A stretch of DNA of 64,000 bases from Abditibacterium sp. (GCA_965199495.1 CBDASK010000003.1:960001-1024000); one strand, 5' to 3'. Counted from the stretch's first letter, positions 44,218-48,553 are shown. Program-made: numbers and translations. Notes: generated from the letters alone by a model not told the origin.

Positions 44218-46353
44218 ATGACCTCTTCCGATTTATCCATCTTTGGCGGCGTGGCTGCTGTTGTTGACCCCGCCGACATTTCGCCCGAAGAAACGACCGC
44301 AATATTTCCTGACTCCGTTGAACTGGCGTATCAAGCGCACGCGCCGCGTTTGCTCGAAATTTTAAGCGAGGACAAATATCGCGCGCTCACTATTTTTAGC
44401 GTCGCCGACTTGAAAGCCGTCGAAGCCAATGTCGGAGAAGATAAAAAAGGCAAGGCCACGATTCAATGTTTGGTGACGAACAAGCCGCGTCTCGCCAAAC
44501 CCGAAGAAGTCGTACGCCAACTCTGGCTGGCGCGCTTGCTCAACCATTATCACTATCCAAAAACGCGGCTTGCCATCGAATTTCCCGTCACTTTTGGCCG
44601 CGATAACACCAAGCGCGCTGACATCGTGATTTTCGATAAAGATCGGCCCACGGTTCCCTACATCATTATCGAAGTTAAAGCGGTGAAATTGAAGGACGGC
44701 AAAGACCAACTCAAAGCGTATTGCAACGGCACGGGCGCGCCACTTGGCGTGTGGTCGAACGGCGGCGAAACCATCGTTTATAATCGGCGCGGCCCCAACT
44801 TCTTTGTTGAAATCCCCGATTTTCCCGCGTCCAATCAAACCATCGAAGAGATCGTCAATGAGCCTTGGACGCTGGAGATGTTGCGCAAAAAATATCAGAC
44901 GAGGGAACGGCATCGCCCGCTTAAACAGGTCATTGAAGAGATGGAAGACGAGGTTTTGTCCAACGCCGGAGTTGACGTGTTCGAGGAAGTTTTCAAGCTG
45001 ATTTTCACCAAGCTCTACGATGAACTCTCGCATCATCAGGGCGCCTCAAAAGCTAAATTCCTGCGCTTTCGCAACCAGAATACAGAAACCGAGTTGAAGA
45101 ACAAAATCGGCGATCTGTTCGATGAAGCCAAAGAGAAATGGGAAGGCGTTTTCGCGCAGGGCGACCCGATTAAATTGTCCGGCTCGCATTTGCAGGTTTG
45201 TATCGGTGCGCTCGAAGAAGAAGTGCTGTTCAACTCGAATTTAGATGTGGTGGACGAAGCCTTTGAATATCTCATCAACAAATCGAGCAAGGGCGAAAAG
45301 GGCCAGTATTTCACGCCGCGCTGGGTGATCGATATGTGCGTGAAGATGCTCAATCCTAAAGAAACCGAGACCGTGATTGATACCGCGTGCGGCTCGGCGG
45401 GCTTTACGGTTCACTCGATTTTTCACGTTTGGCGCGAGATTTTGCGCGACGAGGGCATCGAAATGTCGCACCTTTTCACGGCGGAAAAGAAGCCCGAACG
45501 GTGCAACGAATACGTGCGCGAGAAAGTGTTCGCCATTGATTTCGATGAGAAGGCGGTGCGCGTGGCTCGTTGTTTGAACCTTATCGCGGGCGACGGGCAG
45601 ACCAACGTTTTGCACCTCAATACGCTCGACTTTCGGCGTTGGAGCGACACCATCAAAAGCTCCGACTGGCAGGACACTTACTACGAAGGTTTCAAGAAAC
45701 TGAAGAAATTGCGCGCGGGCAAACCCAAAGACGACGACAAAGACGCTTATCGCTTTTTCGGTTTCGACGTGTTGATGGCCAACCCGCCGTTTGCGGGCGA
45801 CATCAAACAAAGCGATATGTTGGCGCCCTACGACATGGCGCACAAAGCCAACGGCAAACAGGAAAACAAAGTCGGGCGAGATCTGCTGTTCATCGAACGC
45901 AACCTCGACTTTCTGCGCCCCGGCGGACGCATGGCGGTCGTCTTGCCGCAGGGCCGCTTCAACAATTCGAGCGACAAACGCTTGCGCGAATTCATCGCCG
46001 ATAAATGCCGAATTTTGGCGGTCGTTGGCATTGACGGCAACACCTTCAAACCACACACCGGCACCAAAACCAGCGTGCTGTTCGTGCAAAAGTGGAACGA
46101 CGACGAAAACCTCGGCCCGCTTTGCCTCAAGAAAGACGATTACCCGATTTTCTTTGCGACCCAACAACTGCGCTCCAAAGACAATTCGGGCGACAAACTA
46201 CTGGCGCGCGGCAAAGACGGCAAATTGATGTTCGATGATCACGGCCACTTCGTGGTGCAGCACGATTTGTTCAATCACGAAGGCGAGACGAAGGACGGAA
46301 TTTACGAAGCGTTTCATCAATTCGCCGCCAAAGAAGGCTTGTCTTTTTTTTGA
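44218..46353 (+). CDS. Fused restriction endonuclease (HsdR_N-like) plus N6-adenine methyltransferase (Type IIB/IIG-like RM subunit)
   Basis: PEEVVRQ, RADIVIF, IIEVK, GKDQLKAY nuclease motifs; GQYFTPR, IDTACGSAGF, NPPF methylase motifs; no helicase domain. Confidence 0.9.
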   Translation: MTSSDLSIFGGVAAVVDPADISPEETTAIFPDSVELAYQAHAPRLLEILSEDKYRALTIFSVADLKAVEANVGEDKKGKATIQCLVTNKPRLAKPEEVVRQLWLARLLNHYHYPKTRLAIEFPVTFGRDNTKRADIVIFDKDRPTVPYIIIEVKAVKLKDGKDQLKAYCNGTGAPLGVWSNGGETIVYNRRGPNFFVEIPDFPASNQTIEEIVNEPWTLEMLRKKYQTRERHRPLKQVIEEMEDEVLSNAGVDVFEEVFKLIFTKLYDELSHHQGASKAKFLRFRNQNTETELKNKIGDLFDEAKEKWEGVFAQGDPIKLSGSHLQVCIGALEEEVLFNSNLDVVDEAFEYLINKSSKGEKGQYFTPRWVIDMCVKMLNPKETETVIDTACGSAGFTVHSIFHVWREILRDEGIEMSHLFTAEKKPERCNEYVREKVFAIDFDEKAVRVARCLNLIAGDGQTNVLHLNTLDFRRWSDTIKSSDWQDTYYEGFKKLKKLRAGKPKDDDKDAYRFFGFDVLMANPPFAGDIKQSDMLAPYDMAHKANGKQENKVGRDLLFIERNLDFLRPGGRMAVVLPQGRFNNSSDKRLREFIADKCRILAVVGIDGNTFKPHTGTKTSVLFVQKWNDDENLGPLCLKKDDYPIFFATQQLRSKDNSGDKLLARGKDGKLMFDDHGHFVVQHDLFNHEGETKDGIYEAFHQFAAKEGLSFF

Positions 46354-46399
46354 ACAGCCCCTTCGATGAAGCCAATTATCAGGCTTTGTTGAAGGGGCT
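46331..46399 (+). promoter_or_regulatory. Candidate -1 programmed ribosomal frameshift signal
   Basis: AAGAAGG, then T_TTT_TTT (46344-46350) in frame before TGA, 5-nt spacer, 18-bp stem 46356-46373/46382-46399. Confidence 0.7.
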
Positions 46400-47810
46400 T
46401 AACGCCCAAGAGGTTAAGTTTTCAGATTTGGAAGATACGCTTCGCATTGATTCGGAATATCATTCGCCACATTTTTTAGCGTTAGATAAGAAAATTCGCA
46501 GTGGGAAATTTGATAATCTGGAAGATTTGGGGCGCTTAATTCCTGGCCCGTTTGGTTCGGCGTTTCATGTCGAAGACTTTGTTGAAGACGGAGAATTTCG
46601 CTATGTGCGCGGCAAAGATGTGAAGCCTTTCTTTGTCACCAATAACGACAACGTTTATATGCCCGCTACCGATTTCGAGCGCATGAAAGAATTTGGGCTT
46701 CAGGAAAATGATGTTCTGGTTTCCGTCGTTGGGACTTTAGGTAATGCTTCATTGGTGACAGCGGATGTGCTGCCCGCCATTTACAGCTGTAAAAGCACAG
46801 TTTTTCGTTCAGACGATGTTGATGCGCGTTATCTGGTTGCCTTTCTCAATTCGGAATTGGGCCGTCAATTATTACTTCGCAGAACTCGCGGCACCGTTCA
46901 AACAGGCTTGAACTTGCCTGACTTGAGAGCGATTGAATTGCCACGTTATTCGCCGGAGTTTGAAACCGCAATTGGCGATTCAATCGCCTTGTAAGACAAG
47001 GCGATTGAAGATTCCAAATCGCTCCACGCGCAAGCCGAGACGCTGTTACTTCGTGCGCTTGGTTTGGAGAATTGGCGTGCGCCCGTCACCAACAATTACA
47101 CGGTGCGTTCGGGTTCGGTGTGGGATGCCGCGCGCCTCGACGCCGAACATTTCCACCCGCAATTTCAGGCAATGCTCGACCATGTGAAATTGCATGCCAA
47201 GCGTTGTGAAGTTCTTTCTGAACTTTGTCTTCTTATCGACCACGGTAAACAGCCACCCTACGCGGAAGATGGGCCAGCCTTTTTGTTTTCGCAAAAATAC
47301 ATTGGCAAAACTGGCATCAATTACGATTTCCCCGACGATGAGGGCGCCACGCGCATTGACGGACAATTTGCCGCCGACAATGCCGATTATCTTTTGCGTC
47401 GCAATGACCTGGTTCATTACTCAGTTGGCGCCTATATCGGCAGAACTCAACCATTTTTGGAAGACGAGCCGTTGGCAATGCCAGGAAGTTTCATCACCTT
47501 AATTCGCGCTGACGAAAGCAAAATCCACCCAATTTATCTTGGTTGCGTCTTAAACAGCATAGTTGGCCAGATGCAAACTGATAAAATGAAAAGTGCCAGC
47601 GCGCAGCCCTACATTTATCCAAAAGACATCCGCCAATTTCTCGTGCCATTTGTCGCGCCGGAAATCGAAAGCGAAATCGTGGATTGCGTCGAACACAGCC
47701 ACGTCGCCAAACGGCTCGCCAAAGCGTTGCTCGAACGCGCCAAGCGCGCGGTCGAAGTCGCCATCGAAGCAGACGAGGCGGCGGGACTTTTGCTTTTGGA
47801 GGAAAAATAA
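46350..47810 (+). pseudogene. Specificity (HsdS-like) subunit with two TRDs, interrupted by an in-frame TAA at 46992-46994
   Basis: ORFs 46350-46994 and 47064-47810 share a frame; repeated RIDSEYH..F / RLDAEHF..QF half-motifs; YL.AFLNS..G..(L/Q) in both halves. Confidence 0.8.
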
Positions 47811-48553
47811 TGAGACTTGAAAGATTTCAAAAATCGGCGCGTATTCCGGTGCGCGTGCGCAACGGACAAATCGAATTTCTTTACGACACCGAATTTCCAC
47901 CGCTCGAAGACGGGGCGTTAGGTGAATTGGTCGTGGACATCAACACCGTCAAAGACCCGGCATGGCAAAAGTTTTTGGTGGCAAAAGAGCCGGTTCTGAC
48001 CGCAGATGCGGGAGATTTCGTCGCCTTTAAAGTAGCCACAGATAAAGGCGCAGACAAATTGAAAGAGCATTTAATTTCTTTCCGGCAAAATCTCGACTTG
48101 ATGAATGCCAAAGTTGATAATCCGCGCGACGCCCAAGGTCTGGCGACATTTGGCGATGGCTTTGGAGTTCTGGGCCAATTGACGACGCCACTAACGATCA
48201 ACTTGCGGGGAGAAAACTTGTCCAAACTTTCTGGAGGTGCCGTTGAAATTCCTGCGTTGCGCGAACTCAAGCGACCTCATCAAGCAATCTCTCTCAATCA
48301 AGCCTTGGTCATGGTGTCACGAACCTTTGAGCCAGAGCGAGAAAGCAACGTTGGTGACGCCTTCCGCGACATCTATTTGCTTACTGAAGGTCGGTGGGGT
48401 TTGCTGGATGCAATCCGAAGTGATTTTGAAGCTCAACACGAAATCGAACGCTGGGAAGCCATAGGTCTTGACCCGCAAAAAGTCCGCGAACGCATCAGCA
48501 ATAAGGGCGGGCTTCTATCCAACGAAACCACGCGCAAAAAACCGCCAATTTAA
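47810..48553 (+). CDS. Hypothetical protein (247 aa) coupled to the RM specificity gene
   Basis: TAATG stop/start overlap at 47808-47812 with GGAGG upstream. Confidence 0.75.
   Translation: MRLERFQKSARIPVRVRNGQIEFLYDTEFPPLEDGALGELVVDINTVKDPAWQKFLVAKEPVLTADAGDFVAFKVATDKGADKLKEHLISFRQNLDLMNAKVDNPRDAQGLATFGDGFGVLGQLTTPLTINLRGENLSKLSGGAVEIPALRELKRPHQAISLNQALVMVSRTFEPERESNVGDAFRDIYLLTEGRWGLLDAIRSDFEAQHEIERWEAIGLDPQKVRERISNKGGLLSNETTRKKPPI

Follow-up and report, generated by a model that had tools for sequence, protein, structure and literature searches.

The junction between a restriction-modification (RM) gene and the specificity (S) gene that follows it, in a stretch of 64,000 nucleotides (nt) from Abditibacterium sp. 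(GCA_965199495.1 CBDASK010000003.1:960001-1024000; the whole stretch is called the window, and coordinates are counted from its first letter), is probably a programmed -1 ribosomal frameshift site, by which RM and an RM-S fusion would be made from one message. To this reading, which is drawn from comparison of sequences, a probability of about 0.82 is given. The gene and the elements at its 3' end are as follows.

44218-46353, plus strand: RM gene, encoding a 711-aa fused nuclease and gamma-class N6-adenine methyltransferase, the 0-frame product (open reading frame (ORF) list and translation).
46331-46337, plus strand: AAGAAGG, similar to a Shine-Dalgarno (SD) sequence, 6 nt before the heptamer; the consensus of the homologs is AAGGAG, 8 nt upstream.
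46344-46350, plus strand: slippery heptamer U_UUU_UUU in X_XXY_YYZ phase, part of a T8 run at 46344-46351.
46351-46353, plus strand: TGA, the 0-frame stop of RM, which with 46354-46355 makes the 5-nt spacer TGAAC.
46356-46399, plus strand: candidate stimulatory RNA hairpin, with arms at 46356-46373 and 46382-46399 and a loop at 46374-46381.

The RM ORF reads TTG TCT TTT TTT TGA at its 3' end, and the stem, which begins 5 nt after the heptamer, consists of 18 uninterrupted base pairs, three of them G-U, closed by an 8-nt loop. The minimum free energy (MFE) of the 91-nt region is -37.5 kcal/mol, in comparison with -21.3 +/- 3.1 for shuffled sequences (z -5.26), and none of 200 shuffles was as stable. 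The -1 frame is open from 46239, the sole nearby start being the TTG at 46350, and in this frame the hairpin encodes SPFDEANYQALLKGL. A first, sequence-only reading of this DNA had already proposed the frameshift; its coordinates, heptamer phase, spacer, stem, AAGAAGG, open -1 frame and weak TTG start, together with product lengths of 711, 925 and 1197 aa, were all exact on re-reading. Over 46200-47100, including the T8 run and a TAA codon in S that is described below, the window is matched without any difference by a Logan contig of depth 46, from which this assembly probably derives. In an Rfam search no family was matched, the one hit being a microRNA model at E = 2.

According to the proposed mechanism, a ribosome translating RM would meet U_UUU_UUU with tRNA-Phe in the P and A sites, while the GC-rich hairpin located 5-6 nt downstream would resist unwinding. 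Some ribosomes would slip back one base, with both tRNAs re-pairing with UUU, and would continue ...LSFF-LN-SPFDEANYQALLKGL... into S, yielding the RM-S fusion; those that do not shift would terminate at the 0-frame stop and release free RM. On the heptamer G_GGA_AAG, which replaces the U run in some homologs, tRNA-Gly and tRNA-Lys would slip in tandem. One RM-S and one free RM would then make up a complete enzyme, as the (RM)2S composition of BsaXI suggests by analogy, and the efficiency of the shift would set their ratio.

The conservation of this arrangement was evaluated in a homolog scan with one genome per species, in which the best 80 of 130 relatives (59-73% identity) were kept. The contig of one relative stops short of the junction, so 79 loci could be evaluated; being related by descent and by transfer, they do not give counts of independent events. 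The arrangement of the window is seen again in 71 of the 79, which is more than chance. In 65 of them AGTTTTTT[TC] (U_UUU_UUY) stands in phase, with a spacer of 5-7 nt, the hairpin GCCCCTTYGA...TTGGAGGGGC and S in the -1 frame. Four loci, from Flavobacteriia, carry G_GGA_AAG in phase directly before the stop, with the same spacer, a compensated and AU-richer hairpin and S again in -1, and two have the tetramer U_UUU only (one TTT codon fewer) with the same spacer and hairpin. The remainder comprises four loci where S has its own ATG, three in-frame fusions of RM with a half-S, and one locus (L079) that is in frame at the cassette and has its own RM gene interrupted. L079, a contig of a metagenome-assembled genome (MAG), was set aside as a probable assembly indel.

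The cassette loci span 12 phyla and a G+C range of 28 to 65%. The 65 loci with U_UUU_UUY form three classes by the position of the 0-frame stop, which follows the heptamer immediately in 23, comes one codon further on in 16, and is found nine codons downstream, within the hairpin loop, in 26: the stop moves among homologs while the heptamer, the spacer and the -1 relation stay fixed. The homolog test that had been proposed for the frameshift therefore came out in its favour, with an in-phase heptamer, a constant spacer, a compensated hairpin and a moving 0-frame stop. Codon choice at the site is also particular. All cassette loci use TTT for the first Phe codon of the heptamer, in comparison with 32% TTT in the RM bodies, and the codon preceding the Phe codons is mostly AGT, which makes up 11% of Ser codons. 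The most efficient -1 heptamers in E. coli include H_HH.U_UU.Y and G_GG.A_AA.G, and U_UU.Y ranks second among the tetramers for -1 shifting, while insertion sequence (IS) elements use U_UU.U_UU.C and G_GG.A_AA.G among their heptamers, according to the available portion of PMC4066793.

A further 59 metagenome loci (L091-L149) show stop classes of 17, 26 and 16, in the same order, and an open -1 frame in 59 of 59; these were chosen by the strict cassette pattern itself and are evidence of breadth only. The junction is also found on mobile DNA: over 801 nt it is 100% identical between the Klebsiella IncF plasmid NZ_LR890357 (L081) and three of 5426 complete E. coli genomes, in the chromosomes NZ_CP076272, NZ_CP133811 and NZ_CM169500, so the system is mobile among enterobacteria. 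A contig of X6, another run of the study from which the Logan contig comes, matches only the 44-nt cassette core (46342-46385), with one difference and with an unrelated RM-end sequence before it, and therefore a different organism in that study carries a homologous cassette.

The hairpin is under selection as an RNA structure. Its alignment comprises 72 rows, the window and the 71 loci, and is gap-free in the stem region. RNAalifold returned a 13-bp consensus stem in which six pairs show compensatory changes. In the 18-bp structure 82.8% of cells are paired, in comparison with 40-61% when the partners are slid by 1-3 columns, and double-sided changes were counted in 83 cells versus 37.5 +/- 5.6 in shuffles, none of 500 reaching 83. 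The pair 62:79, for example, is GC in 31 rows and AU in 25, and the pair 63:78 occurs as CG, UA, AU and GC. As a control for coding, 200 recodings were made for every native 45-nt hairpin, with the S-frame peptide and the codon usage of the locus left unchanged. The mean MFE over the 72 rows was -29.5 kcal/mol for the native sequences and -12.9 kcal/mol for the synonymous recodings; no recoding was as stable as the native hairpin in 67 rows, and at most 5% were in all 72. The fold of the sense strand is more stable than that of the antisense strand in 69 of 72 rows, a strand specificity that arises because G-U pairs are frequent, and all 72 rows have GGG as the Gly codon of the 3' arm.

The beginning of S points in the same direction. 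Between the last upstream stop and the conserved SPFD codon, 49 of the 65 loci offer no ATG, GTG or TTG in the S frame; of the remaining 16, 11 have as their start the TTG made by TTTTGA, and seven loci lack any canonical start up to +60 nt. Through the hairpin the S frame has no stops, while both other frames have them. The loop codons of this frame encode R or K in 67 of 72 rows by means of 11 different codons, and Y, L or F in 71 of 72 by means of nine. The junction peptide belongs to S in relatives that start it with ATG (L015, MIPPNDMRHKALL; the SMSPFD metagenome loci) and in the in-frame fusions. Judged by these codons, the S frame is constrained as protein through the hairpin loop, upstream of the only recurrent TTG. 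The claim that S lacks a conserved start was borne out. Taken together, an in-phase heptamer, a conserved and compensated structure 5-7 nt downstream, and an open, coding -1 frame without a conserved start were all found at this junction, and from them we infer that shifting occurs. The AAGAAGG element described in the sequence-only reading is present as stated; a part in shifting cannot be told apart from the coding of the conserved K-E codons, which the in-frame fusions keep too.

Natural fusions with the layout of the predicted product exist. A junction query against a collection of 5.8 billion proteins retrieved many single chains of 1150-1200 aa with HSDR_N_2, N6_Mtase and Methylase_S domains. 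At least 60 natural single-chain proteins in which RM and S are joined (RMS; 850-1223 aa) read ...KKExLSFF-(2-40 aa)-(P)FDxx[KR]YxxL[LM][ED]GLE, and their junctions are colinear with the predicted shift product of the window, ...KEGLSFF-LN-SPFDEANYQALLKGL; the RM-S fusion that had been postulated at this locus is in agreement with them, through the shared pattern ...LSFF-xx-SPFD.... In Picosynechococcus PCC 7002, plasmid pAQ6 carries an annotated RMS ORF of 1179 aa in which a linker insertion breaks the hairpin.

Among the homologs of the scan, the three in-frame fusions measure 918, 947 and 922 aa, and each of them has a half-S with a single target recognition domain (TRD). Together with the four ATG-start loci they make seven exceptions, all of which are without the hairpin (best 45-nt window of 90 positions, -12 to -18 kcal/mol). 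The T run is missing in six of the seven, L015 retaining T6. In a quick maximum-likelihood tree (IQ-TREE) of 73 RM sequences, which leaves out eight rows with internal stops (L023, L035, L039, L042, L055, L062, L066 and L079), all seven branch within cassette clades, each at a separate place. Near-identical RM genes were also observed with different junction types and S modules (L005 versus L007; L003 versus L004), which points to an exchange of S modules by recombination at the conserved junction or close to it.

Several observations weigh against a frameshift at this junction, besides the relatedness of the loci already stated. SFF and PFD...LLEGL are kept as protein in the in-frame fusions too, and coding therefore accounts for part of the sequence conservation. 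Because full-length in-frame RMS enzymes exist, there is no obvious need for free RM, and the argument from stoichiometry is weakened. The S gene of the window itself is broken by the TAA. Finally, some S starts are at hand: most loci have a TTG at +30/+33 (the second L of LLEGL) in the 3' arm, PGAP calls S from the +33 TTG in the Klebsiella plasmid, and L033 begins S with an ATG exactly at the +33 TTG position. In L039 an ATG overlaps the RM stop (ATGA) just before SPFD, as it does in roughly nine of the 59 metagenome loci, those that read SMSPFD; free S may therefore be made there in addition to RM-S.

These starts are the substance of an explanation by translational coupling, in which only free S would be made, by reinitiation at the 3'-arm TTG or at TTG 46350; the hairpin would mask the start until the RM ribosome opens it, and there would be no fusion. 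Such coupling also fits the nine-codon stop class, where the loop contains the RM stop, some 9 nt upstream of the TTG, and the presence of GGAGG in the 3' arm, but this GGAGG lies downstream of the TTG and not upstream of it. Coupling leaves unexplained two canonical heptamers that are both in phase, the constant distance of the stem and an invariant -1 relation with a moving stop. Moreover, the peptide encoded upstream of the TTG is constrained, and it is part of S in the ATG-start and in-frame relatives, and seven loci have no ATG, GTG or TTG up to +60 nt. For these reasons coupling is considered unlikely as the sole explanation.

Transcriptional slippage, in which RNA polymerase would add one U in the T7-T8 run, was raised as an alternative by the sequence-only reading. 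The insertion of one U yields the same fusion, now encoded in frame in some messages, and UUUUUUU is under-represented in all frames of E. coli genes, possibly as a consequence of slippage (PMC4066793, in the part available). However, the four Flavobacteriia loci with G_GGA_AAG and the two loci with T4 only are not slippage-prone runs, and many loci have T6C. A strongly selected hairpin 5-6 nt downstream is the signature of ribosomal shifting and not of polymerase slippage. This explanation is therefore held to be very improbable for the family, and slippage may add a minor share at T8.

A junction without any recoding, be it a formerly fused RMS gene whose T run is phase-variable or mutated (as a pseudogene or through an assembly error) or a site where DNA recombination swaps S modules, could appeal to the in-frame RMS relatives that keep AGTTTTTTT at the junction, to L079, to the different S modules of the sister RM genes L005 and L007 and to the broken S of the window, but it has very little probability left, since the run length is fixed per class across 12 phyla, 65 of 66 U-run cassette loci are out of frame alike, L079 is a MAG contig with an interrupted RM gene, and the compensatory pairs, the strand asymmetry of G-U pairs and the stability in excess of recodings are not given by simple sequence conservation. 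The phase variation that had been offered beside slippage is likewise argued against by the clade in which G_GGA_AAG replaces the U run.

In the window, the S gene consists of the following parts.

46350-46994, plus strand: first half of S with TRD1, in the -1 frame (matches to NCBIfam MAD5-like and PADLOC Specificity_I models; alignment to full-length S).
46992-46994, plus strand: TAA nonsense codon, where the central conserved helix (CR1) of S begins (alignment to S proteins).
46995-47810, plus strand: second part of S in the same frame, with CR1, TRD2 and CR2, apparently intact, though the TAA would keep ribosomes from reaching it (Specificity_I PDLC03181, E 1e-28, 47064-47807).

The only start of the first half, TTG 46350, is a by-product of TTTTGA. 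The two pieces together align to full S proteins of 470-490 aa, and it is the TAA that interrupts the gene. The residue aligned to this codon is variable among S proteins and is Q in the closest relative of TRD1; TAA is the commonest stop of the long ORFs of the window (17 of 29). The codon was seen in contigs of two runs of the same study, the second at low depth. No canonical start was found between the TAA and 47064. The predicted fusion has 925 aa as written and 1197 aa with the TAA read through. Because the TAA splits S and no canonical start precedes 47064, the local S is probably inactive and the local system probably dead, with a shift product that would be a truncated, probably inactive fusion of 925 aa. 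Shortened S genes were also noted in the relatives L035, L044, L068, L069 and L080.

Regarding the identity of the enzyme, the RM protein has the Pfam domains HSDR_N_2, of the PD-(D/E)xK type, at residues 95-203 and N6_Mtase at residues 343-629, and the motifs D...EVK and NPPF are readable in its translation. A PD-(D/E)xK nuclease and an N6-adenine methyltransferase thus reside in one chain, as expected for type IIB. The best relative with a solved structure in the Protein Data Bank (PDB) is RM.BsaXI (PDB 8w0p, E 1.2e-23), with a similarity that is limited to the methylase region, residues 341-630. BsaXI is an (RM)2S enzyme, and type IIB enzymes are either 'RM + S' or single-chain 'RMS' (PMC11997821, in the sections available). 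Because RM.BsaXI belongs to such an enzyme, the assignment of the RM-S locus to type IIB is supported at the level of sequence, in line with the comparison to type IIB that the earlier reading had drawn.

Two other assignments were rejected. The PADLOC model MTase_I (PDLC03034) covers RM end to end with 1112 bits; despite this filing a classical Type I system, with RM as HsdM, was ruled out, as RM has its own N-terminal nuclease and the locus has no HsdR gene. No helicase-like ORF or motor subunit was found among the scanned neighbours (41.4-50.7 kb), HsdR not having been searched genome-wide. The MADS defence system was discarded on score, MAD2 giving 318 bits against a cut-off of 720 and MAD5 giving 58 and 39 bits against 400 (NCBIfam equivalog).

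Binding between RM and S subunits is a textbook pairing. By analogy with BsaXI, we infer that RM-S and RM would form an (RM)2S-like enzyme, and, one step further, the shift ratio would matter for its stoichiometry. This idea is mildly supported by the fact that all three nested in-frame fusions carry a half-S, so that a dimer would hold two RM for two TRDs. A wider picture, on which our opinion is evenly divided, is that of a widely transferred, motor-less RM family, distributed over 12 phyla, that would normally be expressed by -1 frameshifting; its two chains would build the equivalent of (RM)2S, the hairpin would double as coding sequence for the linker, and loci would have moved repeatedly between frameshift, in-frame fusion (often with a half-S, which would dimerise) and a separate S with an ATG start.

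The scanned neighbours of the locus are purB, a metallo-beta-lactamase-fold protein and two unknowns, and the locus looks like an acquired island adjoining purB. No close ortholog was found in the 40 genomes of relatives that were searched (41 with that of the window), where the best match has 67% identity. A 247-aa ORF (MRLERFQKSARIPV...) at 47810-48553, which begins at the S stop, was not matched by any Pfam, NCBIfam or PADLOC model; it bears no relation to a third gene that is conserved among the relatives and absent from the window. This third gene, of about 263-275 aa, is carried by 39 loci (e.g., L017:7347-8138), in most of which only 2-7 nt separate its start from the S stop. It belongs to no Pfam or PADLOC family, and its Atlas label is hypothetical. 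Its AlphaFold model is confident, with a pLDDT (predicted local distance difference test) of 89.6, and an R-x4-H-G motif (R231, H236, G237) is invariant. Foldseek found nothing in the PDB at E <= 0.001 with this model, and VIA-align gave weak matches only (Z 4-6), with HEPN toxins and Cas13b at Z 4.3-5.2. The motif and these weak structural matches suggest that the third gene may encode a HEPN-type RNase, perhaps an abortive-infection back-up.

To our knowledge, few cases of programmed -1 frameshifting are well supported in bacterial genes that are cellular and non-mobile. The mechanism proposed here is classical, and its use in this RM-S enzyme family appears to be undescribed. Full-text literature searches, whose reach ended before the supplementary list of 69 candidate gene clusters of PMC4066793, returned no report of ribosomal frameshifting in restriction-modification, and the word 'frameshift' is absent from the available portion of PMC11997821 on type IIB enzymes. 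If the frameshift is real, it would be a -1 shift in a cellular gene conserved across 12 phyla with two different heptamers, and the first recoding event known within a restriction-modification or defence enzyme. Recoding would then set subunit stoichiometry in a restriction enzyme, the two type IIB layouts, RM + S and single-chain RMS, would be linked, and the current annotation of S from an internal TTG would be corrected in hundreds of genes. In addition, the cassette would represent a natural and compact stimulator of the hairpin type for frameshift studies.

One of the closest known systems is dnaX of E. coli, where tau and gamma are produced through an in-phase slippery heptamer, A_AAA_AAG, with an SD-like element upstream and, after a short spacer, a stem-loop; one message yields two products in a fixed ratio, which meet in one complex. 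The RM-S cassette shares the in-phase heptamer, the short-spaced downstream stem-loop and the upstream SD-like element. The shift in dnaX truncates the protein, giving gamma, whereas that in RM-S would extend it into the next gene; the RM-S heptamers are U_UUU_UUY or G_GGA_AAG instead of A_AAA_AAG, and the role of the SD-like element is putative here. Another close system is the OrfA/OrfAB arrangement of the IS3 family (IS911 and IS3, as presented in the part of PMC4066793 available), in which the shift also fuses adjacent overlapping ORFs and the downstream ORF has no efficient start. Unlike those elements, RM-S is not a transposase, and a conserved peptide is encoded by its candidate stimulator, a plain hairpin.

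Among restriction enzymes, the type IIB systems BsaXI and BcgI resemble the window locus in having a fused nuclease-methylase, a separate S gene, which in the window has two putative TRDs and is interrupted by the TAA, and no motor subunit in the locus. The RM of the window is similar to that of BsaXI only over residues 341-630, two-sided cleavage is putative here, and most relatives of the window locus carry the third conserved gene, unlike BsaXI and BcgI. The single-chain RMS enzymes, such as the product of the 1179-aa ORF of pAQ6, have the same domain order and the same junction peptides, LSFF ... PFD..[KR]Y..L[LM][ED]GLE; unlike the cassette loci, they are encoded in one frame, with the hairpin interrupted by linker insertions, and give one product.

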